A stretch of 64,000 nucleotides of DNA, taken from contig JAXHVD010000005.1 in the NCBI GenBank assembly GCA_034189385.1, positions 1-64,000 on the forward strand. The letters run 5' to 3'. Each line of letters starts with the position of its first letter. Position 1 is the stretch's first letter. The notes under the pieces were generated by a model. The model was not told the origin of the DNA. It ran no database searches and saw only the letters and a program-made list of their open reading frames with translations. Below are positions 31,013-51,882 of the stretch, in pieces. The DNA is from Thermodesulfobacteriota bacterium. GTDB taxonomy: Bacteria > Desulfobacterota > Desulfobacteria > Desulfobacterales > C00003060. A program made the position numbers and the translations under genes.

Positions 31013-31474
31013 GTGAAAGAACAAGAGCACAAGGCGGCGATGATAGATAGGGCTAGAGATTGTGATAACTGTCTGTGCTGGCTGCCGTATTGCGAGGCTG
31101 AATGCTGCAAGGGTTTCCAATGCCCTGTGGGGCCCAATGCCAACATCACCATGAGGGGTGGCATTTTCAGGCTTTCAGTTCCCATGAACCCTGACAAGAA
31201 ATGGTACTTTGAGTTACACGGTGTCCAAGTTGAGGGGAACGTTCTCATCATTCCCCAAAAGCATTGTGTGTTTTCCCCGCGTCTTGTAACTGTCAACCTG
31301 CGATGCAGGCTCTTGACAGAAGACAACCTTTGTGCTGGCCATCCCGACAACAAGCCTGAAATATGCAGGGGGTTGACATGGGAAACAACAAGAAATGCAC
31401 TGCCCATGGGCTCTGAGGCGCCTGAAGGGGGCTATCGCCTTACTCCCAACTGTCTGTTCAACTACAAGAGATGA
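31013..31474 (+). CDS. YkgJ-like cysteine-cluster protein
   Basis: CEAECC, CRLL...LC..H..KPEICR pattern. Confidence 0.7.
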   Translation: MKEQEHKAAMIDRARDCDNCLCWLPYCEAECCKGFQCPVGPNANITMRGGIFRLSVPMNPDKKWYFELHGVQVEGNVLIIPQKHCVFSPRLVTVNLRCRLLTEDNLCAGHPDNKPEICRGLTWETTRNALPMGSEAPEGGYRLTPNCLFNYKR

Positions 31475-33161: not shown

Positions 33162-33431
33162 CTGGCCTAGTCGCCAGTGTGAATAAGTACCAGGCCATGG
33201 GCCAGTGCTTTCTTCCCTCCCCCCCTTTTTGTGGAAAGAATCGATCTGATCGGGCAGAAAGTCTTTTGTGAGGGACATTGAGTCCGCCCTGGCGGGAAAA
33301 TTTCTGTGCAAAGCGAGACAAGGGGCAATCGGTGCAAGATCTATGTAACTGACACGGGACATGGGATCGCAAGTGGAGACACAACAGGGGCAGCAAGGTG
33401 TGTTTCCTCATGGCCCTGTTGGACAGAGGAC

Positions 33432-33569
33432 TTAGGTATACATGAGGGAATAGAGCCTGGTTCTTTCCCAGAGAGATGTAATGTCCCAAGCTTGTCTTTT
33501 AGGAAGTATCCTGACCAGGCGGCAGTAGACATGCAGGGCATTGAGGTTATGGTGTAAGAAGTTTTTCAT
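33432..33569 (-). CDS. 45-aa small protein with its own sigma54 promoter
   Basis: MKNFLHHNLNALHVYCRLVRILPKRQAWDITSLWERTRLYSLMYT; AAGGGGG RBS; -24/-12 box upstream. Confidence 0.65.
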   Translation of the reverse strand: MKNFLHHNLNALHVYCRLVRILPKRQAWDITSLWERTRLYSLMYT

Positions 33570-33604
33570 CGTATTTTCCCCCTTTCTTTTGGTTATCCTC
33601 TTTT

Positions 33605-33620
33605 TGCACTGGCCATGCCA
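33605..33620 (-). promoter_or_regulatory. sigma54 promoter A (small ORF)
   Basis: TGGCATGGCCAGTGCA, GG-N10-GC. Confidence 0.75.
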
Positions 33621-33728
33621 ACTCACGGCAACCTCGGCCGCGCTTCAATATAACCAATTGTAATGAGACAGATTCTTGGATTTCCAGCCTTTGTGAAGGG
33701 ATTTTGGGTCCGTGGGCAACTGATGAGT

Positions 33729-33780
33729 TGTTGTGTGCAATGCAACTTATTGCAGTGGCAGTGTCTCCTCAAGGCCAACA
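33729..33780. promoter_or_regulatory. Tandem putative activator sites for promoter A
   Basis: TGTTGTGTGCAATGCAACT (33729) and TGTCTCCTCAAGGCCAACA (33762), 33 bp apart. Confidence 0.6.
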
Positions 33781-33858
33781 TCACGATCGGAGAGAGGGAG
33801 AAAAGGGCAGACTCGAAAAAAGTCAGAAACGGGCGTTGTGACTTCTTGCGACACCATC

Positions 33859-33892
33859 AAAAAAGGGAGGCGGCCAAAACGGCCCCCTCCCT
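33859..33892 (-). terminator. Rho-independent terminator after precursor 1
   Basis: GGGAGG.GGCC/GGCC.CCTCCC stem followed by T6 on the minus strand. Confidence 0.8.
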
Positions 33893-33917
33893 CTAGGAGT
33901 TGCCCGAGGAGGTAGCT

Positions 33918-34172
33918 TTACTCAGCGCCACCGCCCATTGCCGGCATTGCCCCGCCGGGAATGCCGTACGGGACCACAGGGTAGCAGGGATAGGGGAAAC
34001 AGGGGAAGTAAGGATAGCCCATGTAGAAGGGAAAACCGGGGTAGCAGGGATAGCCGGGGATGTACCCAGGGACATAACCCGGGCCGGGGTAACAACCACC
34101 TGCCACCTCACTCATAGCCTTGCCGTTTAGTTCCTTGTCCATTTCCAAATCCTTGATTTTGACCTTTTTCAT
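33918..34172 (-). CDS. Double-glycine leader precursor peptide 1 (Tyr/Pro/Gly/Cys-rich core)
   Basis: MKKVKIKDLEMDKELNGKAMSEVAGG then CYPGPGYVPGYIPGYPCYPG...; AGGAGAAGG RBS; sigma54 promoter and terminator. Confidence 0.88.
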   Translation of the reverse strand: MKKVKIKDLEMDKELNGKAMSEVAGGCYPGPGYVPGYIPGYPCYPGFPFYMGYPYFPCFPYPCYPVVPYGIPGGAMPAMGGGAE

Positions 34173-34224
34173 TTTCCTTCTCCTTTCTTTTTGTTTTTTG
34201 CTGGCGTTTGGTTTACTGTTGGTC

Positions 34225-34240
34225 TGCATCCCCCGTGCCA
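34225..34240 (-). promoter_or_regulatory. sigma54 promoter B (precursor 1)
   Basis: TGGCACGGGGGATGCA, GG-N10-GC. Confidence 0.8.
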
Positions 34241-34348
34241 ACACCGTCGCCAATATTGGATGAACAGTGATAAGTATTTATCATTCAACATCAATTTTGA
34301 ATAAGGGCCTTTTGGGGGAAGCTCCGTATTTTCCAGGTCTCTAAATCT

Positions 34349-34400
34349 TGTTGCTTTTTTTGCAACACATCTGGCATGATCTGTTTGTTCACTGCCAACG
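34349..34400. promoter_or_regulatory. Tandem putative activator sites for promoter B
   Basis: TGTTGCTTTTTTTGCAACA with perfectly palindromic arms (34349) and TGTTTGTTCACTGCCAACG (34382), 33 bp apart. Confidence 0.7.
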
Positions 34401-34653
34401 CTTCTGTTGAGTCGAAGCATTCTGTTGTCCCTTTGCTTGTGACAAGAAGAGTCAAAACCCCTTGATTTGGAGGGATGAAATGGCCATTTTGGGATTGTCT
34501 TTTCATTGAATCTCTGGTATTTGAGATTTTGGCAGTTTGACACTTTCAGAGCACCAGCAACCGTTTTTCCCATAAACAAACAAGTTGTGAAGATCTTGCC
34601 GCTTGGCCTGACAGAACATTCTTTGTGCTGTTCCGTGCCTAAGCGTTAAGGTG

Positions 34654-34772
34654 TTGAACCGAATAAGCGAGCGCATTCCCCGCTGCTTGCGGCGGGGTTA
34701 GCGAGTGTATAGTTAAGATGACAACATCCTTGCGGTGAAGATTCCCCGTGGCTTGCCGCGGGGAGGGTTCAA
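34654..34772. mobile_element. Non-autonomous double-hairpin element (IS200/IS605- or REP-like)
   Basis: Two copies of CCCCG..GCTTGC.GCGGGG hairpins bounded by TTGAA...TTCAA. Confidence 0.6.
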
Positions 34773-34865
34773 TTCATCATTATTCGTGCTCGTGGCTGTA
34801 TGCCGTTGCATCGGGCGCCTCGTCAGTTCCCTGTGTCTTTCAATTGCATTGATCTGTGAGGTACA

Positions 34866-35549
34866 TTGAGAAGGCCCCTTTCCGTTGGATACTTGGCGCT
34901 CCTGCCGTCTATCATTGCCATCCTTGCCTCTGCAGCTATTGCCGAAGATCGATCTGAAAAAGAGATTTGGCAGCTATCCCCCGACTATGAGCTCATGAAG
35001 CCCAAAGTGATTGCGGTGGTTCCCATGGACAACTTCTCTTTGGAGCCCAACGTTGAGAAGGCCTTGTACCAGGAGGTCTATGAACGATTGAAGGTGAAGG
35101 GATACATGAGGATTGCGGCCGAAAAAGTAGATGAGGTCATGAAAGAGCTCGGTATTCAAACGCCTGGTCAACTGGCGGGGATTTCACTCGCCAGGCTTGG
35201 GAAAAAACTTAAGTGTGAGGCTGTGTTGATGGGGCAGATCGAGCAGTCTGGCACGATCCATAAAGGGATTTATGACGCTGTAGCAGTCTCTTGTTCTCTT
35301 AGGCTGGTGGACTGCGCCACGGGGAGAATGCTCTGGCAAACGGAGCAGTGGAGAGCCGCCCACAGACAGTGGCAGGTGGATCCGATTAATCTATTTATCA
35401 ATGTTGCCGCCCATGAAAAGGCCTCACGTGAAAAGAGAGTGGCCTGCCTCGTCCATGAGATGCTGAAGACATTGCCCCAGGGCCACGTCGATGTGCAAGT
35501 TGGCGACCTTTTAAATCAAGCCCAGGAGATCCCAGCAAACCAACCGTAG
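34866..35549 (+). CDS. GNA1162/DUF799-like exported protein (CsgG/TolB-N-like fold)
   Basis: Signal peptide; PKVIAVVPMDNFS, L..KGY, EAVLMGQI, RLVDCATGRMLWQ. Confidence 0.7.
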   Translation: MRRPLSVGYLALLPSIIAILASAAIAEDRSEKEIWQLSPDYELMKPKVIAVVPMDNFSLEPNVEKALYQEVYERLKVKGYMRIAAEKVDEVMKELGIQTPGQLAGISLARLGKKLKCEAVLMGQIEQSGTIHKGIYDAVAVSCSLRLVDCATGRMLWQTEQWRAAHRQWQVDPINLFINVAAHEKASREKRVACLVHEMLKTLPQGHVDVQVGDLLNQAQEIPANQP

Positions 35550-35602
35550 AATAGTATGTTGGTACACCCCGCTTTTCGGACCGGTATGATCGGAGGAAAA
35601 AG

Positions 35603-37018
35603 ATGAAGGCTTCACTGGCAATCAGGTTCTCTCTATTGATGGTGACGGTCCTAAGTGCATGCTCTGTGGGGCCCCAATATGAACGCCCGAAGCTTGAGGA
35701 AAAGAAGGCTTGGGGTGAAACAGAAGCTGCCGAATTAGGGCCCTGCCGAGTCATACAGATGGATTGGTGGACGGGTTTTGGCGATCCTTATCTTAACAAA
35801 TTGGTCCAAGAGGCTATCTCAGGCAGTTTTGACTTGAAGATTCTGCTCGGACGTATCCAGGAAGCAGGTGCTACGATTAAAGGGGCTCGGGCGCAACTGA
35901 TGCCTTCTCTAGACTTGTCCACAAAGGCAGAGTTTAGTCGGGCGGAAGTGCCTGACTTCGGTGGCGGTCACACGGTGGCTGACTCTCAACAGGCCACCGG
36001 ACAGACGAGTTTGAGTTGGGAAATAGACATGTGGGGCAAGAAGAGGAGAGAGTATGCAGCAACCAAAGCTGAATATGAAGCCAGTCAAGCTGACTATCGG
36101 GCAGGATATCTAAAGCTGGTTTCGGAGCTGGCAATGGCCTATTTTCAGATCCGCCAGATTGATGAGCAGTCCCGTATGACGGACAGGTCCCATGGACAAT
36201 ACAATCAAATACTGACCATCTACCAAAACCAATACGCTGAAGGCCTTGTTCCTCAGTGGAAAGTGCTGCGGCAAGAGGCAGAAGTGAAAAGGCTGAATCA
36301 GGATTTGTTGGAACTTGAAAGGGTGCGAAAGAGGCTTGAAAACAGAATAGCCACTTTGTTGGGCCGGCCTGCAGGGGATTTGAAAATTCCCCGTGCCAAC
36401 CTGAGACAAAACCTGCGGCCCGTGAAGGTGCCTGTGGGCCTTCCCTCTGACCTTCTGTCCCGACGTCCGGACATTGTGGCAGCCGAATACCGCCTCATTA
36501 AGGCAACCCATAACGTAGGTGCGGCCGAAGCCGCCAGGCTCCCATCTTTTGGTCTGACCGGCTCTGGCAGCTTAGTGAGTGAAAGCCTCAAGGGGCTGCT
36601 CACGGGCACCTGGGCGCTGTCCATCGCACCAGCCGTGTCCATGCCGCTTTTTGATGGTGGCAGTCGCAAGGCTGACGTTGCTGCAAAACAAGCACGAGCA
36701 CAAGTAACCCAAGAGGTGTATCGCAAGACAGTAATGACAGCCTTTGAAGAGGTGGAGAACGCTTTGGTAAATCTGGAGAGTCGACAAAAGCAGCAGGCTG
36801 TCCTGAAGGAGAAGCTCGACGGGCTGAAACAGGTTCGATCTCAAACCACCGCCAAATTTGAACTTGGCTTGATATCCCAATTACAGGTTCTAGACATCGA
36901 GCGGGAGCTTTATGCAGCTGAGAAGTCGCTTCTGCAGATGCATCGTTACCTCTTGGATGATACCGTCTCTCTCTTTAAGGCCCTGGGCGGCGGCTGGGGC
37001 AAGGTCACAGTGAAGTAG
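35603..37018 (+). CDS. Outer membrane efflux factor lipoprotein (NodT/OprM family)
   Basis: Lipobox LSAC-SVGP.YERP; WW..F.DP.L..LV; PSDLLSRRPDI.AAE; LFKALGGGW. Confidence 0.95.
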   Translation: MKASLAIRFSLLMVTVLSACSVGPQYERPKLEEKKAWGETEAAELGPCRVIQMDWWTGFGDPYLNKLVQEAISGSFDLKILLGRIQEAGATIKGARAQLMPSLDLSTKAEFSRAEVPDFGGGHTVADSQQATGQTSLSWEIDMWGKKRREYAATKAEYEASQADYRAGYLKLVSELAMAYFQIRQIDEQSRMTDRSHGQYNQILTIYQNQYAEGLVPQWKVLRQEAEVKRLNQDLLELERVRKRLENRIATLLGRPAGDLKIPRANLRQNLRPVKVPVGLPSDLLSRRPDIVAAEYRLIKATHNVGAAEAARLPSFGLTGSGSLVSESLKGLLTGTWALSIAPAVSMPLFDGGSRKADVAAKQARAQVTQEVYRKTVMTAFEEVENALVNLESRQKQQAVLKEKLDGLKQVRSQTTAKFELGLISQLQVLDIERELYAAEKSLLQMHRYLLDDTVSLFKALGGGWGKVTVK

Positions 37019-37056
37019 CGTGAGAAAGTAGAATTTTGACCGGAGACATTTTTCCT

Positions 37057-39108
37057 ATGAAAGTCATCCTGCAGGCCGAGCCAAATACGGGTATCCAAGA
37101 TATCGTCATCGAGGGCTTGCCTTTTGTGATCGGCCGCGGCGAAGGCAAGTTTTCGCAGTACGAAGAGCAATTCCCGGATCAGCTAAAGAAGCTTTCCAGG
37201 CGGCATGCCCGGATCTTCGTCGAGGGGGGCAGACTGTACATAGAGGACCTGGGCAGCACCAACGGCACTTTTTTGGGCGGACAACGGCTTCATGATCAGC
37301 CCATGCCTCTTGGAAATGGGGACGCTATAGCCTTTGGCGCTTTCTTTAAATACGTGATTTACATAGATCAACCTGAGACGAAATCGGCGGAAAGCCGGCC
37401 CGGCGGGGAAAGCACCATATACGTGTCGGACGCTTCCTCCTTCTTGGGCATGCTAGCCTCGGAGAAGAAAGCAGATCAGGGCCCTTCTTCAGGCGGCCGC
37501 CAAGAAACCTCCTCCCAATCCTCTATTCCGTGTGCGGGCACCCATTCGAAACTTAAGGACAAGAAAAGACTTTTTGCCGCCTTTATCGCTGAGTTCTGGG
37601 ACAAGCCCGGAGACGGCCGGAAACGAAAATGGTACTTGCTGGGTTTGGTCGGGGTCCTCTTGGCTGCAGGGGTTGTTTCAGTGGTCGCCCTCAGTTCGCC
37701 CGAACGGAAGTTGAAGAGACTAATGAAGCAACAGCGTTACACTGAGTGTGCTCAGGTGGCTGATGCAATACTGCGGGAGGATCCTCACGATGAACGCGTG
37801 TGTGATATCGCAACAGAGGCTCTCATAAAGGGCATTTTGCCTGACTGGATGGACAAATTGAAAAGGGCACGCTTCGCTGAGGCCCGGGAATTCCTAGCCT
37901 CAGCGGCATCACGAAACGAACACAATCGTGACGGCTTAAAAGCTATAGAGTTGTTGGTTTGGGTCACAGACCTTGAAGCGTTCTTTGCCGGAAGGAAGGG
38001 CGAAACACCTGTAACCATATACCGGGACGAGGAAAAGGTAGAGTCCTTGCTCAGTCGATGGACCAAGGACAAGAACTGCAACTGCTCTCTTCTGGACCAA
38101 ATGGCAAACCACCATCCTCCATTTGCCATTTACCAGAGACAGATACACAGCGATCTAAATGCACTGAAGACCTTGGAGACGATGCGTGTTGAGCCCACCG
38201 AAGAGCTCAAGGCGGCAATAGAAAGTCAATTGGATGCGGACCGGCCTGAGGCTTTGGTTGCAACTGTAGAAAACTTCAGACGAAAGTACCCAGAGATCGG
38301 CGGAATAGAGGCATTGCAGAAAGATGTGGCTGCCTATATTGCCCTCTGGAGAGCGGTGGAGTCAAAGGAATTGTTCAGGGTGTCCTCCTTGCTTGAAGAA
38401 GACCCTTATCAGACCAAGCCATTTGTGGACAAGGTCGCCCACATTCGTGAAAAGATCCTGCCCTCGCCCGCCGTCGTTGAGGCATACAGAAGGGCCAGAG
38501 AGGCCTGGTTGGGGGGGGCTCCCAAAAAAGCCATCGCGATCCTTCAACCCCTCGTCAACGAGAAATGGGGCGAACTGGCAGAGAGGAAACTGAAACACTA
38601 TCGTCAGGTTCTAAAGGACTTCGCTGCGGTGGAAGGGTCAAGAGACAGATTAGACTACGGTGTCCTCCTGCTCTCTTTTCATAATATCCTTATTCCAAGT
38701 GAGGACGAGGTTTTCTTGAAGTTGATAGAAAAGGATTACGAGAAGATTAGAACCGAAGAGTTGAAGAAGAGTCAGGCTTCATTCATGGAGGCGCAAGCAA
38801 AATGGGATGACTACCTAAAAGGTGGTGGGATTTCGGGGCTTCTTCGCCTTGACACAAAGGTGTCTGAGGAGTTTCGAAGAAAGGCAGGACTTCTGAGAAC
38901 GGCCTTTGAGGCTTTTTCGTCAGGTGCCAGCATATATGGTCTTCTAAACAGGGAGTTGCCCGATACGTGGAAGACCCTTGAGAAGACCATTCTTGATGAA
39001 GTCCAAATCCAACGACTACGTCTTGATGATCTCAGAAACGTATTGGACCCTGCTGTATCGTCAGAGAAGGTCAAATTGCTACCGAATCCATCAGAGAGGA
39101 AAGACTGA
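37057..39108 (+). CDS. FHA-domain membrane protein with large helical C-terminal region
   Basis: IGRG..SRRHARI..EDLGSTNGTF FHA motifs; one TM (WYLLGLVGVLLAAGVVSVVAL); stop overlaps HlyD start. Confidence 0.9.
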   Translation: MKVILQAEPNTGIQDIVIEGLPFVIGRGEGKFSQYEEQFPDQLKKLSRRHARIFVEGGRLYIEDLGSTNGTFLGGQRLHDQPMPLGNGDAIAFGAFFKYVIYIDQPETKSAESRPGGESTIYVSDASSFLGMLASEKKADQGPSSGGRQETSSQSSIPCAGTHSKLKDKKRLFAAFIAEFWDKPGDGRKRKWYLLGLVGVLLAAGVVSVVALSSPERKLKRLMKQQRYTECAQVADAILREDPHDERVCDIATEALIKGILPDWMDKLKRARFAEAREFLASAASRNEHNRDGLKAIELLVWVTDLEAFFAGRKGETPVTIYRDEEKVESLLSRWTKDKNCNCSLLDQMANHHPPFAIYQRQIHSDLNALKTLETMRVEPTEELKAAIESQLDADRPEALVATVENFRRKYPEIGGIEALQKDVAAYIALWRAVESKELFRVSSLLEEDPYQTKPFVDKVAHIREKILPSPAVVEAYRRAREAWLGGAPKKAIAILQPLVNEKWGELAERKLKHYRQVLKDFAAVEGSRDRLDYGVLLLSFHNILIPSEDEVFLKLIEKDYEKIRTEELKKSQASFMEAQAKWDDYLKGGGISGLLRLDTKVSEEFRRKAGLLRTAFEAFSSGASIYGLLNRELPDTWKTLEKTILDEVQIQRLRLDDLRNVLDPAVSSEKVKLLPNPSERKD

Positions 39109-40475
39109 TGTCCCAAGAAAAACACCCAGAGGTTTTCGTGGACGCCGTGGAAGAGCACAGTGCGGAAGCCCTTGAAGTGCTCATGGAAAGGTCCTCTTTG
39201 TTAGCCCGGGGGATTATCTATCTGCTGATAGCCCTCTTAGCGTCGCTGTTTATCTGGTCTTTTTACGGCAAGGCAGATGTGATCATTAAGGCTAAAGGGC
39301 AATTGGAGCCGGCGTCTGAGGAAAGACGGGTCTATTCACCCACAAACGGTGAATTGATCGACATCTATGTGGCAGAGGGCATGCCCATATCCAAGAATGA
39401 CCTCCTGGCTCGCATCAAGGCGCCAGAAGCCATCAAGGCTGCGGCAGGAGCAGTGGAGGCAAAGATGAAACTTCAGGAAGCTGAGCGGCAAAAAGAGGTC
39501 TTTCCAGAGAAGAAGAAGATAATGGAAGAAGAGCTTGCCACCATAGCCAAACACATTGAGCAGAAAGAGAAGGAGTACAGTCAACTTAAGACAGAAGGAT
39601 TGCGGAACCTTTCGGAGAGCCAAAGACATAAACTAGAGGCAACGAGAACCAAGCTGGAAGAAGCAAGAAGCGAAAGAGATCTTGCGAAACGGACGGCGGG
39701 TACATACAAGCGCCTCTATGAGACGCCAGGCCATGGCGGCGTCTCCAGACAAGAAACGGAAAAGGCAGAAAGCACATACCTTAAGGCAAATGCCACGTAT
39801 GAGCGTTTGTTGACGGAGCTACAGAACCTGGAACTTGAGTTCAGCAAACAACATGCGGAAACGGGCAACAAGATTGACAAGACATACATTGAGCTACTGG
39901 GTATGCGTGTCAAACATGCAAACAAGAGGCAGGAAATCGCAAACGCGGAAAGCCGGATTGACGTCCAGTATCGCACGGCGCGGGCGAAGTGGGAGGCCGC
40001 TTCCCTGGTGAGTTTTGAGGACCTTGATCAAGAAACGCTAGTGATCCGTTCCCCTGTATCCGGGAAGATAACCCGGGTCTCCTTCAAGCAACAAGGAGAA
40101 AAGGTGGAAGCAACAAAAGCCCTCGTTTCCATCGCCCCGGCAGATGCCAGGGATATTCTGCGTGTTTCTATCTTGGACAAGGACCGTGGCTTCCTCAAGG
40201 TAGGCCAACCGGCAAAACTGAAGTTTGCTGCCTTTCCTTTTCAGCGCTATGGCTTCATACGGGGCAAACTGGAGTATATATCTCCCTCTGCAGAGCTCTC
40301 AAAGGACGGACAGCCGCTATACAATGGCCGGGTCAGTTTGGAACGTGACTATTTCATAGTCAACGGTGAGGAGATAAAACTGAGGTATGGCATGACTGCA
40401 GATGCGGAGATCATAGTTCAAAAGCGCAGGTTGATAGATCTGGCCTTGGATCCGGTGAGAAGACTCAAAGGCTAG
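39108..40475 (+). CDS. HlyD-family T1SS membrane fusion protein
   Basis: N-terminal TM, coiled coil, IRSPVSG, KFAAFPFQRYG, LRYGMTADAEI. Confidence 0.95.
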   Translation: MSQEKHPEVFVDAVEEHSAEALEVLMERSSLLARGIIYLLIALLASLFIWSFYGKADVIIKAKGQLEPASEERRVYSPTNGELIDIYVAEGMPISKNDLLARIKAPEAIKAAAGAVEAKMKLQEAERQKEVFPEKKKIMEEELATIAKHIEQKEKEYSQLKTEGLRNLSESQRHKLEATRTKLEEARSERDLAKRTAGTYKRLYETPGHGGVSRQETEKAESTYLKANATYERLLTELQNLELEFSKQHAETGNKIDKTYIELLGMRVKHANKRQEIANAESRIDVQYRTARAKWEAASLVSFEDLDQETLVIRSPVSGKITRVSFKQQGEKVEATKALVSIAPADARDILRVSILDKDRGFLKVGQPAKLKFAAFPFQRYGFIRGKLEYISPSAELSKDGQPLYNGRVSLERDYFIVNGEEIKLRYGMTADAEIIVQKRRLIDLALDPVRRLKG

Positions 40476-40664
40476 GGGCGGCGTGGACTGAAGGGTCGGG
40501 ATCTTACACAGTCAGCCCGACATGAATTGATCTGTGCCAGTGACCGCACTTTCACGGTCGTGGGATTCCATGTTAAGAAAGGAGGTGACCGTATTCCCGG
40601 GGGGAGGAATTTGACAGGAAAGGTAGCGCGCCTGAGTATTTATGGGTTCTTGAAGGAGGTAAAG

Positions 40665-41417
40665 ATGAGCACAGCGATCAAGATTAACGACGAGGTGGTT
40701 TCTGCAGAGCAATTTATCAATATCCTGAAAATGTCAAACGAGTTTCCTTTGCTGGCCGAGAAAGTTATCCGCGACAAGATAACGGTACAGGAGGCCAAAA
40801 AGAAAGGCATCAGTGTGTCCACCGAGGAGGTCCAGCAGGAAGCGGACGATTTCAGACGCGTTGCGGCCCTTCATCGGGCAAAGGATACGCAGGAATGGAT
40901 GGATCAGAGAGGGCTGACGCTGGATGAGTTTGAGATTTTTGTAACGGAGAGAATCTACAAGAAGAAGATGGTTGAAACCATCACGAGCGAGCAGTCCATT
41001 GAAGAGTATTTCAAGCTGAACTCGCCCAAGTTCGACAGTGCCGATATCAGGCACATCGTGGTGGACAGTGAGGCCAAGGCAAAAGAACTGATGTCTCTGC
41101 TGAGTGAAGACCCAGAGGGTTTTGGCGAGTTGGCCAAGGAGCACTCGCTTGACAATGAGACCAGAAAGACGGGAGGACAGATCGGAGGCTTGCGTCGGGG
41201 GGTGCTGCCCGATGAGGTGAGTGCCAAGGTCTTCAATGCATCTGCAGGAGATGTCGTCGGGCCCTTGGAGTTGGGCGATGGGTATTTCTACGAGATTATC
41301 CAGGTTACAGCCGTCAATCCTGCCAGCCTGGACGATTCCACCAAGGAAGAGATAGGTGAGTTACTTTACAACGACTGGCTGGAGGCACGTCTGCAAGAGC
41401 ACAGTGTTACGGTATAG
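40665..41417 (+). CDS. Parvulin/PpiC-type peptidyl-prolyl isomerase without signal peptide
   Basis: SurA-N-like helices then IRHIVV..FGELAKEHSLD..GG.IG..VFNAS.GDVVGP; AAGGAGG RBS. Confidence 0.9.
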   Translation: MSTAIKINDEVVSAEQFINILKMSNEFPLLAEKVIRDKITVQEAKKKGISVSTEEVQQEADDFRRVAALHRAKDTQEWMDQRGLTLDEFEIFVTERIYKKKMVETITSEQSIEEYFKLNSPKFDSADIRHIVVDSEAKAKELMSLLSEDPEGFGELAKEHSLDNETRKTGGQIGGLRRGVLPDEVSAKVFNASAGDVVGPLELGDGYFYEIIQVTAVNPASLDDSTKEEIGELLYNDWLEARLQEHSVTV

Positions 41418-41775
41418 TTCGTTTCTGTCCCTATAAATCGCTCTTATTCCAATGAGCGGCTTTATGCGTGGGTATTGCGCCTGGGGCTTGAAAGGAACGG
41501 CTGTGATCCGCCTATGGTGGACTGACTTCGAGACTGAGGTCAGTGCTGATTCATAAGCTGTTTATACATGGGCAGTAGCTGGGTTTCGTGAGAAGAGGAA
41601 GGTGGCTGAAACCGTGGTCCTTGCAGGCAAGGGGGAGTTGCCGCTTTTTTTTATTCCGGGGCGCCCCCCTTTTACTTCATAAAGGTTGTGGTCCCCTTAC
41701 AATAGGTTTCTTTGAGTCCATGGCTTTGACTTGCCGGAGTACATTGGCCGGCCAGATTAAACAGGAGGCCTTTCA

Positions 41776-44700
41776 TTGACAGAGTCATCCATAGTAGACT
41801 TCCTTGCTAGCGTTGAGTTCTTCTCTCCTTTTATATATCGAGAACTGGAGCAATTGGCCGGATATGCCGAGTCGTTGCACTTCGAGTTTGGGGACACCAT
41901 ATGCACCTCTGGCGACACGGCCCAAGGCCTCTTCGTCATCAAGGCGGGGCGGGTGAGACTCTTTACCGAAGACAGGGGCAAAGAGAGGAGCATAGGGGTT
42001 CGCGAACCTGGGGACACCTTTGGCGAGGTCTCGGTTTTGGAAGAGCCAACGCTCGACTATTCGGCCCGCGCCTCTAGCAAGGTGGAGATCCTTTTCTTGC
42101 CTCGCCAGCCGGTCATGGATTTGTTGGCGAAAAACGAGGCAGCAAAGGGTTTTATCGCACGATATGTGGCCTTGAAGGTGAGCGGTGCTGTGGTGACCCA
42201 GCTTTTCAACCTTCGCTCCAAGGTGGACCGCGGAGAGATCGAAGAGATTATCAAGGGCATTGGCATTAAGCGCGTGAAGGCAGGAGAGAAGATCCTTGTC
42301 CAAGAGGGCGCTGAAGATCGACGGCTGTACATCGTGCGAGAGGGCAAAGTAAGTATTGTAAAGGAGGAAGAGGGTTCGGAGTATTCTTTAATGAGTCTGG
42401 GACCAGGGGAAGTGTTCGGAGAAAAGGCCTGCCTCCTTTATTCGACGCAGCCGGCTACGGCCGTTGCAGACACGGACAGTGTCCTGATGGCCGTGCCACA
42501 AGAGACCATCCACTTCATTCTGGAGCGTAATCCTGGCCTGCGGGAGGTGTTGGAGGAACGCATCCATTTCGCCGAGAAGGAATTGGAGCGGAGAAGAAAA
42601 GTTGCCGAGCGCAGGAAAAAACGTCTTCTCTTTGACATCAAGTCCAAGCCCAAAATGGGGGAGCGCATTATCAAGCGGTTTCCCCTAGTAGAGCAGGCCG
42701 AGGAAATGGATTGCGGTGCGGCCTGTCTTGCCATGATCTGCAAGTACTATGACATCCCTGTGACCCTGGGAAAACTGAGGGAGATGGCCAATGTGACCAT
42801 TGAAGGTGCTACCATGGAAAGCCTGGCACGTGTGGGTGAATCCTTGGGCTTTGCGACAAAGGGCGTCCGATGCACCTACAAATCCATGCTCAGTTTTGAG
42901 CTTCCCTTTGTAGCACACTGGGAAGGATATCACTACATTGTGGTGTACGGCATTTCCAAGTCCCATGTTTGGGCTGCTGACCCGGGGGTGGGGTTTAGGA
43001 AGATGTCCGTGTCGGAGTTTGAACAGGGGTGGACGGGCAATAACCTGTTGTTTTCCCCCACCGGGGCCCTCGCTCAGATCGCCGTTGAGCAGTCCCCCTG
43101 GCTTCGTTTTGTCGGCTATCTCAGTCCCTTTAAGAAGATCCTTCGGGACCTCATTTTTGCGTCCCTTATTGTCCAGTTGCTGGGCCTGGCCCCTCCTGTG
43201 ATCATACAGAACATCCTGGACAGGGTCGTGGTTCACCAGAACTATCACCTCCTCCATGTCATGATCGTGGGTCTGGCAATCACGATGATATTTAGCCAGG
43301 TCACGGGGTATCTCAGCGCTTACCTGTCAAATTTCATGATCCGCAAGATGGATTTCAACATGATGTCCCACTTCTATAAACATGTGCTTTCTCTGCCGAC
43401 GAGCTTTTTTGCCAAGCGGAAGGTGGGCGACATCATGGCCCGGTTTCAAGAAAATGACACCATCAGGCGGTTCATGACAGAGACCAGTATCAGGACCCTT
43501 ATAAGCACGCTGATGGTGTTTACCTATTTCATTGTCATGTTCATGTACAATGTAAAACTGACCCTTTTGCTACTCGCCTTTTTGCCGCCCATCATCCTCC
43601 TTACCCTCTTGGCCACACCCAAATACAAGGACTACGCCCGGCGCAGTTTCTATGCCGAAGCTGATGCCCAATCCCTTCTCGTAGAAACATTGGGCGGGGC
43701 AGAGACAGTGAAAGGGACAGGCATCGAGCGACCAATGCGCCTAAAATGGGAGAAAAAGTATGTCAAGACCCTGGACCTGCGTTATCGTTGCGAAATGTTC
43801 ACCAGCCTGGTGGGGACTCTGGGCCAAACGTTAAAAGCGGCCACGACGCTTACGCTATTGTGGGTGGGGTCCAGGATGGTTCTGGCCCAGGAGCTTACCA
43901 TTGGCCAATTGATGGCTTTTAATGCCCTTATCGGCAGCGTGATGACACCCCTCATGGGCCTCGTGGGGGTTTGGGATGAGCTTCAAGAAACGCTCATTTC
44001 CATGGAGCGGCTGGGCGACGTGCTGGAGCTAGAGTCTGAGCAGAAGCCAGAAGAGGTCCCCGCCAAAGTGGTGCTTCCTGACCTGAAGGGAGACATACGC
44101 TTCGAGAATGTCTATTTTCGGTATGGTGGCAAGGAAACCCCTTATGTGCTGGAAAACATCAACATGGACATTCAGGCCGATACGACAGTGGCCATTGTTG
44201 GGCACAGCGGTTCAGGTAAAACCACACTGGCCAAAATGCTGGTGGGTTTCTATCGGCCCAGTGAAGGGAAAATATTCGTTGATGGTTATGATATTGGCAT
44301 GCTCGATGTAGAGTACTACCGTGCTCAAATTGGCTACGTCATGCAGAGTAATCTCCTCTTTTCGGGAACGGTCTCTGAAAACATTGCCGTGGGTGAGCAG
44401 AATCCGGACCCGAGACGCATTGCCGAGGCGGCCAGACTGGCTGATGCCCATGGGTTTATTGGCAACTTGCCTTTGGGTTACGAACAGGTCGTTGGTGAAA
44501 GGGGAATAGGCTTGTCCGGTGGGCAGATTCAGCGCATTTGTATTGCCCGTGCCCTTTACCGTGATTCAAGATTGTTGATTTTTGATGAAGCCACATCTGC
44601 CTTGGACAGCGAATCTGAAAGTCATATCCAGATGAATATGCGAAAGATCCTCAAGGGCAGGACTGCCATTATCATCGCCCACAGACTGAGCACCGTCATG

Positions 44701-44835
44701 CATGCTGACAGGATACTGGTCCTCTATGATGGGGCTATTGTGGAGGAAGGAAACCATCAAGAGCTGTTAGAGAGAAAGGGCATGTACTTTCATCTTGTCC
44801 AGAAACAGATATCTTCGGGAGAGATTAAGTCATGA
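41776..44835 (+). CDS. Peptidase-containing ABC transporter (2x cNMP-binding, C39, TMD, NBD)
   Basis: Two CRP-type domains (GDTFGE, GEVFGE); QAEEMDCGAACL, HYIVVY, ADP catalytic triad intact; GHSGSGKT, LSGGQ, IFDEATS; TTG start after AGGAGG. Confidence 0.95.
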   Translation: MTESSIVDFLASVEFFSPFIYRELEQLAGYAESLHFEFGDTICTSGDTAQGLFVIKAGRVRLFTEDRGKERSIGVREPGDTFGEVSVLEEPTLDYSARASSKVEILFLPRQPVMDLLAKNEAAKGFIARYVALKVSGAVVTQLFNLRSKVDRGEIEEIIKGIGIKRVKAGEKILVQEGAEDRRLYIVREGKVSIVKEEEGSEYSLMSLGPGEVFGEKACLLYSTQPATAVADTDSVLMAVPQETIHFILERNPGLREVLEERIHFAEKELERRRKVAERRKKRLLFDIKSKPKMGERIIKRFPLVEQAEEMDCGAACLAMICKYYDIPVTLGKLREMANVTIEGATMESLARVGESLGFATKGVRCTYKSMLSFELPFVAHWEGYHYIVVYGISKSHVWAADPGVGFRKMSVSEFEQGWTGNNLLFSPTGALAQIAVEQSPWLRFVGYLSPFKKILRDLIFASLIVQLLGLAPPVIIQNILDRVVVHQNYHLLHVMIVGLAITMIFSQVTGYLSAYLSNFMIRKMDFNMMSHFYKHVLSLPTSFFAKRKVGDIMARFQENDTIRRFMTETSIRTLISTLMVFTYFIVMFMYNVKLTLLLLAFLPPIILLTLLATPKYKDYARRSFYAEADAQSLLVETLGGAETVKGTGIERPMRLKWEKKYVKTLDLRYRCEMFTSLVGTLGQTLKAATTLTLLWVGSRMVLAQELTIGQLMAFNALIGSVMTPLMGLVGVWDELQETLISMERLGDVLELESEQKPEEVPAKVVLPDLKGDIRFENVYFRYGGKETPYVLENINMDIQADTTVAIVGHSGSGKTTLAKMLVGFYRPSEGKIFVDGYDIGMLDVEYYRAQIGYVMQSNLLFSGTVSENIAVGEQNPDPRRIAEAARLADAHGFIGNLPLGYEQVVGERGIGLSGGQIQRICIARALYRDSRLLIFDEATSALDSESESHIQMNMRKILKGRTAIIIAHRLSTVMHADRILVLYDGAIVEEGNHQELLERKGMYFHLVQKQISSGEIKS

Positions 44836-46100
44836 AAACGGGCTCTGTGGTATCCTTTGCTCGGCTCTTAGAGCGTATTGAGATTCTCCGTTCGGGCCTC
44901 CGCTGGGCCCCCCAGCTTGACCGTACGGGGGTCCAGAGGATCTTAAGGCAGGTGAACAAGTTACGCGAGGACGTCCTACTGCTTTCTGGGGTGGAAAGAT
45001 ACAAAAAGCGTATGCGTGAGAAGGCCCCGCCGAAGCCCAAGGCTGCTAAGAAGAGACTTCAGGCGCTCATGGACCGCAACTTTGTCTTTGAAGGGGTTTT
45101 TGGCGAAAACCCAAAGCTGCTGGAAGCCTTGGAAACAGTGGAAAGAGCTGCACGGACAGAGTTGCCCATCTTGATCGAAGGCGAGAGCGGCACAGGCAAA
45201 GAATTACTTGCCAAGCTCATCCACGCTGGAAGTGACCGGTCGGAGAAGACCTTTGTCTCCGTTAACTGTGGTGCCATCACCCCCAGTTTGCTGGAATCTG
45301 ATCTGTTCGGCCACGTCAAAGGGGCTTTCACGGGCTCTGTAAAGGACCGCAAAGGCAAGTTTGAGACCGCCAAAGACGGCATCATTTTTCTGGATGAGAT
45401 TGGTGAGCTTTCGGCGGAAAGCCAGGTCAAGCTCTTACGGGTGCTGGAAAGTGGCGAGATCCAGAGAGTCGGCTCAGATGAGGTCATTCGGGTAAACACC
45501 CGCGTCCTTGCAGCCACAAACCGCAACTTGTACCAGATGACGGCAGACGGGCAGTTCCGAGAGGACTTGTACTACCGTTTGAGCGTCATTTCCGTCACGT
45601 TACCCCCTCTTCGCGAGCGTACCGATGAGATCCCCCTGCTTATAGACTACTTCTGTGCCGAGGCATCGGAGAAGTTGAATCGTCCTGCTGTGAGGCTCTC
45701 TCCGCGACTCAGAAGATTTCTGCAAAAACACCCTTTTCCAGGAAACATCCGGGAGCTGCGAAACATCATCTACCGTGTAGCCTGTCTGGCCGATGAAGTG
45801 GCGGACCTAAGAGATCTGCCGGAGACCATACGCCCTTCGTCAGTGGGGCCCCAAGACGCAGTTGAAGGGCGGGCCCCAAGCCGATTTACTACCCTGGCCG
45901 AGGCCAGGAAGGCGGCTACCGACGCAGCGGAAAAAGAGTTTCTGGAAGAACACCTGACACAGACCCATGGAAACGTGACGCAGTTGGCCAAACACCTGGA
46001 GATGAATCGTTCCTACCTTCAGACGCTACTAAAGAGCCATGGGCTGCGGGCGAAAGATTTCAAAGGCAAGGCAACGTCTACAAAGAACTCTGAAAGATGA
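44832..46100 (+). CDS. sigma54-dependent activator (bEBP) lacking a recognisable sensory domain
   Basis: GESGTGKE, GAFTGS loop, FLDEIGE, FREDLYYRL, PGNIREL, Fis-type HTH; ATGA overlap with the transporter. Confidence 0.95.
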   Translation: MKTGSVVSFARLLERIEILRSGLRWAPQLDRTGVQRILRQVNKLREDVLLLSGVERYKKRMREKAPPKPKAAKKRLQALMDRNFVFEGVFGENPKLLEALETVERAARTELPILIEGESGTGKELLAKLIHAGSDRSEKTFVSVNCGAITPSLLESDLFGHVKGAFTGSVKDRKGKFETAKDGIIFLDEIGELSAESQVKLLRVLESGEIQRVGSDEVIRVNTRVLAATNRNLYQMTADGQFREDLYYRLSVISVTLPPLRERTDEIPLLIDYFCAEASEKLNRPAVRLSPRLRRFLQKHPFPGNIRELRNIIYRVACLADEVADLRDLPETIRPSSVGPQDAVEGRAPSRFTTLAEARKAATDAAEKEFLEEHLTQTHGNVTQLAKHLEMNRSYLQTLLKSHGLRAKDFKGKATSTKNSER

Positions 46101-46122
46101 AGGGGCCCACAGGCCCCTTTTT
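46100..46122. terminator. Terminator hairpin between the convergent bEBP and precursor 2 genes
   Basis: AAGGGGCC/GGCCCCTT stem followed by T-run on the plus strand. Confidence 0.7.
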
Positions 46123-46136
46123 GCTCTTTGTGACAG

Positions 46137-46364
46137 CTAAGCGCCCCAGCCGCCCCATGGCATGCCCCAGCCGCCCCATGGGTTTCCCCACCAGCCGGTA
46201 CCCCAGGAGGTGGAGCTGCTGCTTCTGCCGCCGCCGCCCCAGGGGGTCCACCACCAGCTCGAGCTGGAGCGCTGACTCCACCACCAACCGCCTGTCAAGC
46301 TCTTCAACGCCTCTTTGTCGAGCTCCATGTTCTTTTCCAGGTCCTTAACTTCAATGTTTGCCAT
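46137..46364 (-). CDS. Double-glycine leader precursor peptide 2 (Trp/Gly/Ser-rich core)
   Basis: MANIEVKDLEKNMELDKEALKSLTGG then WWWSQRSSSSWWWTPWGGGG...PWGGWGMPWGGWGA; AAGGAGA RBS; sigma54 promoter. Confidence 0.9.
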   Translation of the reverse strand: MANIEVKDLEKNMELDKEALKSLTGGWWWSQRSSSSWWWTPWGGGGRSSSSTSWGTGWWGNPWGGWGMPWGGWGA

Positions 46365-46430
46365 GTTCTATCTCCTTTCTTCTGATGTTTGTTCAACTCG
46401 CTCTTTCTTGAGGATCCGTCTCTAGACGTA

Positions 46431-46446
46431 TGCACTGCTCATGCCA
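46431..46446 (-). promoter_or_regulatory. sigma54 promoter C (precursor 2)
   Basis: TGGCATGAGCAGTGCA, GG-N10-GC. Confidence 0.8.
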
Positions 46447-46557
46447 GGTCGGGGTCTATCAGGCCATCCATCATGATAACGCTTTATAATTAATAGCTAA
46501 ATTGATGATGGAATCTGTCTTGCCTTGCAACCTATTGCAGCTAGTCCTTTGTTTTTT

Positions 46558-46620
46558 TGGTGTCTTTTACCCAACATAATCAACGGGGACTTGGAGGCAA
46601 GTGTTGGCTCCATCCTAACA
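46558..46620. promoter_or_regulatory. Tandem putative activator sites for promoter C
   Basis: TGGTGTCTTTTACCCAACA (46558) and TGTTGGCTCCATCCTAACA (46602), 44 bp apart. Confidence 0.6.
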
Positions 46621-46712
46621 ACGTGTTGCCAGGCCCCTTCCCACTGCTTGGCATCATTGCGACCTCCCGAAAAAGAGCGGATTTTCTGCCTGGCCCACGT
46701 CCATTCTTTGAT

Positions 46713-46764
46713 TGTTTGCAAAAAAGTAACATTTTGGTTTTCATTTGTTCTTCTAAACACAACA
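46713..46764. promoter_or_regulatory. Tandem putative activator sites for promoter D
   Basis: TGTTTGCAAAAAAGTAACA (46713) and TGTTCTTCTAAACACAACA (46746), 33 bp apart. Confidence 0.65.
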
Positions 46765-46874
46765 CAAACCAGACGTGAAGATTGGTCAAGTCGATCTGAA
46801 ACGACTTGCCGGGTTCGACATTTAATAGACATGATAACTGCTTATGGAAGAGCATGGGGGGACAGCCCGTAGGT

Positions 46875-46890
46875 TGGCACGGTAGATGCG
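46875..46890 (+). promoter_or_regulatory. sigma54 promoter D (towards the kinase operon)
   Basis: TGGCACGGTAGATGCG, GG-N10-GC. Confidence 0.75.
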
Positions 46891-47218
46891 ATGTAAATGA
46901 AACGAAGGAACCCTGAGGGGGCGAGGCGGATCTTCTCTGACTAAAGGTCGCTGCCGGTCTGCATGGCAGAGGCACCTACAGTGGTAGGTGAAAAAAGAGG
47001 GCACTGGCGGCATCGGGGGCAGAGCGGAGAGGGGTCCGAATGTTCTTGGCTCCATGAGGGTGTGGCCATTTTTTTGAGGCCAGCCGGCTATTGTTTTTTT
47101 GGAATCTTTGGTATATGAGATGACATAGTGAGGGGAAATAGTGGCTCTAGCCAATGAAATCTGCACGTACTACTCTGTGCAGTTTACTCCTCAGATACCG
47201 CAGATAGACTGGCCTCTT

Positions 47219-48952
47219 ATGTCCGAAGATGAAACCAAAATTAAGTCAGCTCTTGGTAAGAAGTATGAGATCAAGAGCCTGATCAACAGCGGAGGGATGG
47301 GTGCCGTCTACTTGGGCATCCATCGGGCCCTCGATAGGCCCGTGGCTATAAAGATCATCCATCAGGAGTTGAGCAAGGATGAGCAGCTCAGGAGGAGGTT
47401 CTGCCAAGAGGCCAAGTTGGCCGCAAGTCTCGATCATCCTGTCATCATTGACGTATACGATTTTGGCAGCAAAGATGATTTTGACTATATCATTATGCCC
47501 TATGTTGAGGGTAAAACGCTCCAAGACCGGCTCAAGGAAGCGGGCAAATTCGGAGTGCAGGAATGCTTAAGATTGATGATCAAACTAACAGATGCCCTTT
47601 GTTATGCACACAAGAAGAACGTGGTGCATCGGGACATCAAGCCATCAAATGTCATGATAGATAACCATGGACATCTTGTTCTCACTGATTTCGGCATCTC
47701 CAAGGACATGGGGGATCTTGGGCTTACTGTTCCCGGGAAAGTGCTCGGATCGCCGAAATACATGAGCCCTGAGCAGATTAGAGGGGAGGATGTGGACGGC
47801 AGAAGCGATCTGTACTCCTTGGGCTTGGTTTTCTACGAAATGATTACGGGTAAACATCCTTTTGAGGGCAAGGATGCCACCTCCATTTACTACGCCCAGG
47901 CCCACGAGATTCCCCCCAGGCCGGAAGAGTCTGTACTCGAAATCCCCGGTCAAGTGGGGGATATCATCATGAAGCTCCTTGAGAAGTCCCCGGAACAAAG
48001 GTACCAAGACAGTGGTCAATTGCTGAGGGATTTGGAGGGCCTTGGCCCTGGTCCTCCCAAGGAGCTAAGGATAGATGTCGATGCAACGTTGGTAGACCCC
48101 GAAACAGGACCTGATGGGAGGGGCAAGCCTTCTGCCCAGGACGCGAAGAAAGAAATCTCTCCATTAGGAAGGCCCAATGAAATGGCCGACGGTCTTGCCG
48201 AACAAGCACAGCCTTCGGCGAAAGACAGGAAGACTCCCAGATGGATGGTCCCTGCACTGGGAGCGACTCTAGTAGTTGTGGTCGGCATTGTGTGGGTCAT
48301 GCTCATGCCATCGACAAAAGACCCTGGGCCAAGCCCGACAGACAATCAGTCTCCACAAAGCCTTGAGAAAGAAAATGGGTCAAGCCTCTCTTCAATGGGT
48401 GTGGAAGTCCTCAAATCGGAAACGGAGAAGGAGTTGAGCTCTGAGCTGACTCAGGGTCTGGGGGCCAAACCCTCATTCGATTCAGTAGTAGAACGCTTGC
48501 TGGTCCTTGCTCAAGACAGAGAGGCCGTCTTTCTTCGGCTGTCAGTAGACAAGCCGAATTTTAAAATCGGCGAATCCATTTCCTACCATTTTCGATCAGA
48601 CAAGGCCTGCTATTTGGCATTGCTCAGTCTTACCACCGGCGGGGAACTCATTCAGGTTTTTCCCAACAAGTTCAACCCGGACCAATATATAGAGGCGAAA
48701 AGGGATTATGCCATTCCTGGAGAGAAGATGGATTTTGAATTGCATATTACAGGGCCGCCAGGGGAAGAAGAGCTTCTGGCCTTCGCAGCCGATGCGCCCT
48801 TTGACCTTTTCTCTGCCAGCTTTGAAGCTCAGCCCTTCTTCCAGGTGGACAAGGGTGACCAAAGGATACTGGATAGAATCATTAACAGAATACAAGAAAT
48901 GGAGAGAATCAACGTCGCACAGAGGCGTGTAAGCTATACAATAAGTGACTAA
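47219..48952 (+). CDS. Hanks-type Ser/Thr kinase with TM and C-terminal DUF4384-like domain
   Basis: GGMGAVY, VAIK, HRDIKPSN, DFG, GSPKYMSPEQ; TM; FKIGESI...IQVFPN...GPPGEE. Confidence 0.93.
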   Translation: MSEDETKIKSALGKKYEIKSLINSGGMGAVYLGIHRALDRPVAIKIIHQELSKDEQLRRRFCQEAKLAASLDHPVIIDVYDFGSKDDFDYIIMPYVEGKTLQDRLKEAGKFGVQECLRLMIKLTDALCYAHKKNVVHRDIKPSNVMIDNHGHLVLTDFGISKDMGDLGLTVPGKVLGSPKYMSPEQIRGEDVDGRSDLYSLGLVFYEMITGKHPFEGKDATSIYYAQAHEIPPRPEESVLEIPGQVGDIIMKLLEKSPEQRYQDSGQLLRDLEGLGPGPPKELRIDVDATLVDPETGPDGRGKPSAQDAKKEISPLGRPNEMADGLAEQAQPSAKDRKTPRWMVPALGATLVVVVGIVWVMLMPSTKDPGPSPTDNQSPQSLEKENGSSLSSMGVEVLKSETEKELSSELTQGLGAKPSFDSVVERLLVLAQDREAVFLRLSVDKPNFKIGESISYHFRSDKACYLALLSLTTGGELIQVFPNKFNPDQYIEAKRDYAIPGEKMDFELHITGPPGEEELLAFAADAPFDLFSASFEAQPFFQVDKGDQRILDRIINRIQEMERINVAQRRVSYTISD

Positions 48953-51153: not shown

Positions 51154-51882
51154 ATGTCAGAAAACAGGAGGTCCACGTTGAAAGGAAATTACACTTCAGT
51201 AAAAGTCCTGCAGTTAACGGCGCTTTCAATAGTCCTTGCGCTCTTGGGGTGTGCGGGAGCTCCGCCTGCCGCTGATCTGCCGCCAACACCGGAAGAAAAG
51301 ATGGACTGGTCCACACTGCCCAGTCCGCCACAGAAGAAGCAGCTTGTTGCTGTCGCGGGTTTTGAGAACAAGAGCACCTATTCTGCTGACAAACTCTGGG
51401 ATACATCCTCCCGCATCCTGGCAAGTTACCTGTTGCGGGCCGGATACTTCCGGGTAGTGGAATGGGAGAAGATGAAGCAGCTCTTTGACTGGGACACCTT
51501 GAGTACGGCCAGCCTGGTGAAAACGCCGGAAAATATGAAAAAAGCACAGCGTATATTGTTATGTGAGCAGTTTCTTTCCGGGTCGATCACGTATTTCGAC
51601 GTGCGACAACATGCAAGTGTGAGCGCTACTTCCAAGAAAAAGGTCATAGACACAACCATCCGGGTCGATCTACTCCTCCAAGATGCTCAGTCTGGGGAGT
51701 ATGTCTCTGCTGGCATGGGCGAACATACGGTGAGCCAGGTCTATTCAGGGGGGCTCTCAGGTGGCCAGACGGGAAGCTGGGATCCGCGCGCCGCAGATAA
51801 AGCGCTGGATATGGCCATTGGCAAGGCATTACTTGAATTGATTTCAAATTTTGACCGGCTTGTGGGACATGGGGCTTCGTAG
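51154..51882 (+). CDS. CsgG/HfaB-family lipoprotein
   Basis: Lipobox LLGC; VAVAGFENKS, L..AGYFRVVE, SGSITYFD, RVDLLLQD..SGE. Confidence 0.8.
   Translation: MSENRRSTLKGNYTSVKVLQLTALSIVLALLGCAGAPPAADLPPTPEEKMDWSTLPSPPQKKQLVAVAGFENKSTYSADKLWDTSSRILASYLLRAGYFRVVEWEKMKQLFDWDTLSTASLVKTPENMKKAQRILLCEQFLSGSITYFDVRQHASVSATSKKKVIDTTIRVDLLLQDAQSGEYVSAGMGEHTVSQVYSGGLSGGQTGSWDPRAADKALDMAIGKALLELISNFDRLVGHGAS

Follow-up and report, generated by a model that had tools for sequence, protein, structure and literature searches.

Paired TGTT-N11-AACA sites as the likely enhancer of a sensor-less sigma54 activator and of dispersed double-glycine precursor genes

Four sigma54-type promoters, P1 to P4, each preceded by two palindromic sites, lie on a 64,000-nucleotide (nt) stretch of DNA from a Thermodesulfobacteriota bacterium (contig JAXHVD010000005.1, positions 1 to 64,000; hereafter the window), and their common layout raises the question of which protein reads the sites and which genes are controlled through them. 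A first-pass annotation had assigned the sites to the bacterial enhancer-binding protein (bEBP) encoded at position 44832, which was thought to activate two precursor genes together with a 45-amino-acid (aa) open reading frame (ORF) and a neighbouring kinase–caspase–CsgG operon, so that two clusters would form one system. Our comparative analysis makes it likely that the paired TGTT-N11-AACA sites are the enhancer of this sensor-less activator, whose gene stands behind those of an exporter, and that the core of the regulon consists of dispersed genes for precursors with double-glycine (GG) leaders. The boxes and sites are as follows.

33605..33620, minus strand: P1 sigma54 -24/-12 box, sequence TGGCATGGCCAGTGCA
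33729..33747, no strand: P1 proximal enhancer site, 109 bp from the box
33762..33780, no strand: P1 distal enhancer site, offset +33
34225..34240, minus strand: P2 sigma54 box
34349..34367, no strand: P2 proximal site, 109 bp from the box, perfect TGTTGC-N7-GCAACA
34382..34400, no strand: P2 distal site, offset +33
46431..46446, minus strand: P3 sigma54 box
46558..46576, no strand: P3 proximal site, 112 bp from the box
46602..46620, no strand: P3 distal site, offset +44
46875..46890, plus strand: P4 sigma54 box, with the kinase ATG 328 nt downstream
46746..46764, no strand: P4 proximal site, 111 bp from the box
46713..46731, no strand: P4 distal site, offset +33

On re-measurement, all four boxes and eight sites were found where they had first been placed, with the same distances (109, 109, 112 and 111 bp) and offsets (33, 33, 44 and 33 bp), and the palindrome with perfect arms was present as described. 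The motif TGTT-N11-AACA is exact in four of the eight window sites and carries one mismatch in the other four; the boxes fit the TGGCAC-N5-TTGC type (GG-N10-GC), with a nucleotide other than T at the first T of TTGC in all four. DNA between sites and boxes has an AT fraction of 0.60–0.78, and its best matches to integration host factor (IHF) sites show 1–3 mismatches to the consensus. Helical phasing of the site distances is suggestive at most (best period approximately 11.3 bp, with R only 0.63 overall and the loci related).

Could such an arrangement have arisen by chance? The window corresponds to contig C45 of the source genome (4.13 Mb, 90% complete), and we searched this genome with a fixed composite rule, defined as a strict box plus two sites with at most one mismatch each, at 105–116 bp and with offsets of 32–34 or 43–45. 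With one mismatch or none allowed, the site frequency is 3.4e-4 per base, from which 0.0013 matches were expected among the 166 strict boxes of the genome, against six observed: P1–P4 and two new promoters on contigs C1 and C20. A matrix built out of sample, from 18 sites that all came from other genomes and with the distance left free over 25–165 bp, gave ten matches, of which the top seven scored 19.5–32.5 bits and each lay at 109–112 bp; the seventh was a third orphan precursor promoter, on contig C7. The remaining three scored at most 11.9 bits. Frequent motif pairs in shuffled DNA would have spoken against the annotation, but four block-shuffled genomes peaked at 10.4 bits. Because six matches were found where 0.0013 were expected, and because the matrix scores stand far above the shuffled background, the composite arrangement is not a product of chance. 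The forecast that a genome-wide search for motif plus box would reveal more precursors was borne out, as the C1, C20 and C7 promoters all front unlinked GG-leader precursors.

The precursor genes of the window itself lie directly behind two of the four promoters.

33918..34172, minus strand: GG-leader precursor 1, 84 aa, Pro/Gly/Tyr-rich core, behind P2
46137..46364, minus strand: GG-leader precursor 2, 75 aa, Trp/Gly/Ser-rich core, behind P3

Both P2 and P3 carry the full composite element, as do promoters of unlinked precursors, and the annotated role of the element in driving both precursors appears well founded and reaches further than had been proposed. The C1 and C20 promoters stand approximately 55 nt before unlinked small genes that share the double-glycine leader of the window precursors. 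Altogether the genome holds eight precursors, five of which have a box with the site pair, and that on contig C18 has a box with one perfect site at 109 bp. Leader residues L9, L15, A19, G25 and G26 are invariant in 12 precursors. The cores are hypervariable, being rich in Trp/Gly/Ser or Pro/Gly/Tyr here and in Cys/Tyr in other Desulfobacterales, and in Massilia they are N/Q/S/G-rich and beta-prone-looking, encoded in arrays of 8–9 genes. No Pfam family was found for 12 small proteins tested, no Pfam or NCBIfam model names these exported peptides, and their neighbours in the protein atlas are unnamed clusters. Since the fold prediction for a Massilia precursor was uninformative (pLDDT 38), the idea of a fibre or amyloid derives from composition only (39% N/Q/S/T/G). 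A tRNA called by eye before the C4 precursor was not confirmed. In four Massilia loci (L005, L006, L007 and L009, 12000–17200), 8–9 GG-leader genes form two repeated blocks, and at some promoters of these arrays the site pair lies only 41–52 bp from the box. Elsewhere (L215, G603:C27), a 63-aa protein of membrane type, which has no GG leader, is encoded behind a composite promoter and is a possible non-precursor target.

The shared geometry might instead reflect nothing but the duplication of one promoter cassette, with no selection for binding. The 5′ leaders of the precursors do resemble each other, the C1 and C20 cores are paralogous, and P1 may be a copied cassette. The spacer DNA, however, is unrelated among the promoters of the source genome, yet site cores and distances are kept constant, and this holds across phyla too. 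Further evidence comes from L122, a metagenome contig whose activator is 92% identical to that of the window. It keeps P3 and P4, and around them 31 of 32 positions of the site cores and 32 of 32 of the boxes are identical to the window, against 495 of 727 in the remaining intergenic DNA; all four of its sites are perfect consensus, and a 42-bp insertion separates the two site pairs while leaving the distance of each pair to its own box unchanged. Such conservation of the site cores above background leaves duplication by itself largely refuted and very improbable and, judged by the same comparison, P4 is under selection.

The candidate binder is encoded between the exporter and P3.

44832..46100, plus strand: sensor-less sigma54 activator (bEBP) with N-terminal helical hairpin, AAA+ domain with GAFTG loop, and Fis-type helix-turn-helix (HTH) with MNRSYLQ helix

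Its start overlaps the stop of the exporter gene, and Walker A, Walker B, the GAFTG loop and the HTH are all intact. Pfam reports no REC, GAF or PAS domain, so that the protein does not have the receiver of an NtrC-type activator; in place of a sensor it has a conserved helical N-terminus of approximately 80 aa, for which a structure model predicts two helices. The clade is 57–93% identical over full length among 45 aligned homologues, the nearest relatives are of Desulfobacterales type, and the recognition-helix residues N392-R393-S394 are invariant in all 45. Identity with PspF was rejected, as TIGR02974 scores 261 bits against a cut-off of 444 and an 80-aa extension precedes the AAA+ domain; the PrsR model TIGR02915 scores 283 against 503. 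Neither the activator nor the precursors were found in any of 36 same-genus genomes, and a very loose pattern that matched seven of these 36 was judged to do so by chance, its reversed control matching six. A distant clade member (41%) occurs in an alphaproteobacterium (L010), where the recognition helix differs and the PPIase–HlyD order is reversed; neither composite pattern nor precursor was found in that genome.

Does the element follow this clade across genomes? Among 400 Desulfobacterales-type genomes, an orthologue of the activator occurs in 10, the composite pattern in 10 and both in 6, so that the pattern is present in 6 of 10 activator-positive and 4 of 390 activator-negative genomes; three of the six double-positive genomes had served in pattern design, and without them the figures are 3 of 7 against 4 of 390. 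A reversed-pattern control matched 0 of 401. Four independent matches in positive genomes precede precursors, two of them approximately 1 Mb from the activator, and the four matches in activator-negative genomes precede unrelated genes. All seven precursors found in five other Desulfobacterales-type genomes carry the site pair, six of them being training sites. In the Massilia family (351 genomes) the orthologue was found in 48, the pattern in 56 and both in 43, that is, in 43 of 48 positive genomes against 13 of 303 negative ones, with the reversed control matching 2 of 48 and 27 of 303, respectively. Among the loci listed, which cover 30 of the 56 pattern-bearing Massilia-family genomes, a GG leader was encoded downstream in 21 of 24 rows of positive genomes and in none of seven rows of negative ones. 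One genome counted as negative, G445, yet bearing three pattern matches, retains a truncated activator orthologue (C1:2488214-2488870) 3.6 kb from one match.

Several observations weigh against our reading. Two of the eight precursors of the source genome have no promoter of this kind (C2 combines a single site at 108 bp with a broken box, and C4 shows no part of the element), and the pattern is missing from five of the 48 Massilia-family and four of the 10 order-level genomes that have the activator; the order-level misses comprise one with the pattern at 88 bp (G362), one with a box CGGCAT (G303) and two with no precursor in the assembly (G056 and G078). The Massilia-family pattern was loosened after four Massilia loci were known, and Fisher values for the co-occurrence overstate it because related genomes are not independent. 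A Methylococcaceae genome, from a gammaproteobacterial methanotroph, has 13 precursor matches with degenerate sites only, at 142 bp with a half-site at 109, and is missed by the strict pattern. Finally, the source genome encodes 30 full-length bEBPs, hence cross-talk is possible.

This last number also bears on the alternative that the sites are bound by another of these bEBPs, or by a factor of another kind, and that the adjacent activator acts elsewhere. TGT-Nx-ACA half-sites are common in Desulfovibrio bEBP motifs, and of two co-localised candidates in that study one failed to bind (PMC4641369). The spacer from TGT to ACA, however, is 13 here and 9, 11 or 12 in the published groups, the element and the activator clade co-occur in two phyla, and even the pattern-bearing G445 keeps a truncated orthologue. 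PrsR was rejected as the binder: it is described with a TTTACA-type motif approximately 63 nt upstream and PEP-CTERM targets (PMC1569441), features not found here. We therefore regard another binder as unlikely. Because the element co-occurs with the activator clade, the recognition helix is invariant and the targets are GG peptides of the adjacent exporter, the 44832 activator is likely the protein that binds the paired sites; of the annotated claim, the tracking of sites with clade and precursors is observed, and binding itself we infer from co-occurrence.

The activator gene closes a run of export genes.

34866..35549, plus strand: GNA1162-like protein, first gene of the export operon
35603..37018, plus strand: TolC/NodT-type outer-membrane channel
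37036..39108, plus strand: FHA-domain membrane protein, the sole FHA match to this query in the genome
39108..40475, plus strand: HlyD adaptor
40665..41417, plus strand: SurA/PpiC-like protein, TIGR04500 below cut-off, invariant core gene
41776..44835, plus strand: peptidase-containing ATP-binding cassette (ABC) transporter (PCAT) with two cNMP domains, C39 peptidase (Cys and His motifs) and ABC exporter

All hallmarks of PCAT-type double-glycine export are present, namely a C39 peptidase with Cys and His, an ABC exporter, HlyD, TolC and GG-leader substrates, and the PCAT at 41776 is the only C39 match in the genome, which leaves one such exporter for all eight precursors. A sigma54 promoter for the export operon was sought in the window and none was found. 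Upstream of the operon (34676-34762) lie two similar GC-rich inverted repeats of the type TTCCCCGC...GCGGCGGGG, which by eye the 42-bp insertion of L122 resembles, and which are possibly like repetitive extragenic palindromes. We then compared 20 betaproteobacterial loci, taken from the 48 activator-positive genomes for their long contigs. A peptidyl-prolyl isomerase (PPIase), the PCAT and the activator are present in 20 of 20, and within this core the activator is the only DNA-binding protein; around it are a PP2C in 17, a Ser/Thr kinase in 14, an FGE-domain protein in 12, TolC in 9, FHA in 8, HlyD in 7 and a caspase domain in 3, with CsgG, the 45-aa ORF and GNA1162 in none. Searches with window and Caballeronia/Massilia queries only revealed no modifying enzyme in the conserved core, and PP2C_2 was not found in the source genome at its 90% completeness. 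Of the 30 composite promoters in these neighbourhoods, 28 precede precursors and two precede a kinase; the gap between tandem sites is 31–33 in 28 of the 30 and 43 in two. In two Massilia loci (L005:5731 and L007:5700), a sigma54 box with a site pair only 30–32 bp upstream stands before the PPIase–PCAT–activator genes, which suggests positive autoregulation of these genes, an arrangement not present in the window.

The two remaining window promoters front genes of other kinds.

33432..33569, minus strand: 45-aa ORF, HxLNxLHVYCRL family, no GG leader, P1 target
47219..48952, plus strand: Hanks-type Ser/Thr kinase with DUF4384, probable P4 target
49039..51123, plus strand: secreted-type caspase-domain (C14) protein
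51154..51882, plus strand: CsgG-family lipoprotein

No Pfam or NCBIfam family and no usable protein-atlas match was found for the 45-aa ORF, which has three close (E<1e-13) and eight weaker paralogues in the genome; the HxLNxLH[VL]YCRL small-protein family has about a dozen members there, on contigs C62, C23, C3, C20, C12, C2, C4 and C6. Its co-activation had been proposed on the strength of P1, and the full promoter is indeed there, but the other family members in the genome are without it. As it has no GG leader and the element is missing at its paralogues, we read the 45-aa gene as a likely captured local target, and the P1 cassette likely fronts it as a regulon target in this lineage.

The kinase operon is less clear. 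P4 lies 328 nt from the start codon of the kinase, as compared with 35–66 nt for the targets of P1–P3, and might give rise only to a short RNA, or to a long leader under some conditions, while the operon uses a sigma70-type promoter of its own and the two clusters are merely neighbours. By eye, L122 preserves no leader reading frame and shares a T-rich TTGTTT...TATAT near 47090-47118, in which a consensus scan called no promoter, and a sigma70-like element is conserved at Massilia kinases. Elsewhere the association mostly fails: no composite promoter is present at nine DUF4384 regions from five further Desulfobacterales-type genomes, and none of 12 betaproteobacterial Caballeronia-type kinases has an inward one, although two kinases of another type do; the Caballeronia kinase has the same kinase–DUF4384 architecture and a caspase neighbour and is only 33% identical. 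Against a separate function for P4 stand these two betaproteobacterial kinases, the preservation of its box and both sites in L122, and a leader with no terminator, Rfam family or unusual fold (z -1.23); an Rfam scan of 33100-47400 gave one sub-threshold chance match only. We put the short-RNA or leader alternative at somewhat below an even chance, and hold it slightly more probable than its opposite that the P4 cassette fronts the kinase–caspase–CsgG operon in this lineage. Given the 328-nt gap and the nine DUF4384 regions that lack the element, co-regulation of the operon is probable only in this lineage. The proposal that the two clusters form one system is thus plausible here, and by the betaproteobacterial neighbourhood, and fails in so far as the kinase operon is no core member of the regulon.

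How would the paired sites work? Group IV sensor-less bEBPs such as PspF and HrpR/S consist of an AAA+ domain with GAFTG and a Fis-type HTH, have no REC, GAF or PAS domain, and bind tandem palindromic upstream activating sequences approximately 100–150 bp upstream. The window activator has the same plan and tandem sites, and differs in its added conserved helical N-terminus of approximately 80 aa and in targets that are exported peptides; no PspA/HrpV-like partner was identified for it. By established sigma54 biology, two activator dimers would bind to the same side of the double helix, separated by three or four turns, then form an AAA+ ring and reach the sigma54 polymerase approximately 110 bp downstream by looping, perhaps with the aid of IHF; rpoN is encoded on contig C21 (PF04552, E 1.7e-61). 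As in PCAT biology, the leaders would be cleaved after GG, and the one cNMP-C39 ABC/HlyD/TolC exporter of the genome would carry the cores out; the PpiC-like protein would likely act as a chaperone. The activator would most likely be switched on in trans, with either the exporter module or kinase/FHA/phosphatase signalling acting through its N-terminal hairpin.

Parts of this design have published counterparts. The PEP-CTERM/PrsR regulon likewise places one bEBP enhancer and a sigma54 box before many dispersed single-gene export targets and was defined by phylogenetic profile; PrsR is a response regulator acting with PrsK on a TTTACA-type motif approximately 63 nt upstream of exosortase substrates, as opposed to a sensor-less activator, TGTT-N11-AACA and GG peptides here (PMC1569441). 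Cyanobacterial bacteriocin clusters I, II and VI (PMC3140520) and HetC (PMC10986499) likewise combine a long C39 ABC protein bearing an N-terminal cNMP (CAP_ED) domain with HlyD, SurA/rotamase and GG-leader substrates, whereas here there are two cNMP domains and, in addition, a dedicated bEBP, an FHA protein and a kinase; the main text of Wang 2011 (PMC3140520) uses neither the word "sigma" nor the word "kinase". The bEBP regulons of Desulfovibrio vulgaris share TGT...ACA half-sites, a co-localised activator and small size, with spacers of 9, 11 or 12 rather than 13, and one of 16 ungrouped motifs could still resemble ours (PMC4641369). The rosaritide cluster MirA-D also has a TIGR04500-like PpiC protein beside PCAT and precursor, but the conserved core here is without a graspetide synthetase or other modifying enzyme (PMC13097080). 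In the open-access papers searched, no account of this activator, motif or regulon was found.

Other features of the window lie beyond these clusters. A 555-aa secreted-type protein (52315-53982) with Gly and Thr runs and Cys-rich modules has no Pfam match, is 78% identical in L122 and is followed by a TolC/MFP/MacAB-type exporter. After this second exporter, 59312-64000 encodes a glycosyltransferase, a B12 radical SAM protein, a carbamoyltransferase and a membrane glycosyltransferase-like gene. A 153-aa Cys-rich ORF at 31013-31474 has no Pfam or NCBIfam match.

The regulon is real, well supported and built from known parts, and appears to be undescribed. It provides a likely binding motif, together with a set of targets, for an activator family that has no name and is present in 48 of 351 Massilia-family and 10 of 400 Desulfobacterales-type genomes and in one gammaproteobacterial methanotroph, and the composite element serves as a gene finder for exported small peptides, including orphans a megabase from the exporter. 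Massilia offers a cultured and harmless host in which to ask how a sensor-less activator is switched on and what the peptides do. Tentatively, the parts may belong to a cross-phylum secretion programme, in which either its own exporter or a kinase/FHA/PP2C relay would control the sensor-less activator. The activator would in turn drive arrays of hypervariable exported small proteins, which would serve as building blocks of a matrix or of fibres, or as kin-specific signals with feedback via the periplasmic DUF4384 kinase. If this is true, the programme would be a Gram-negative, sigma54 counterpart of peptide-pheromone circuits.

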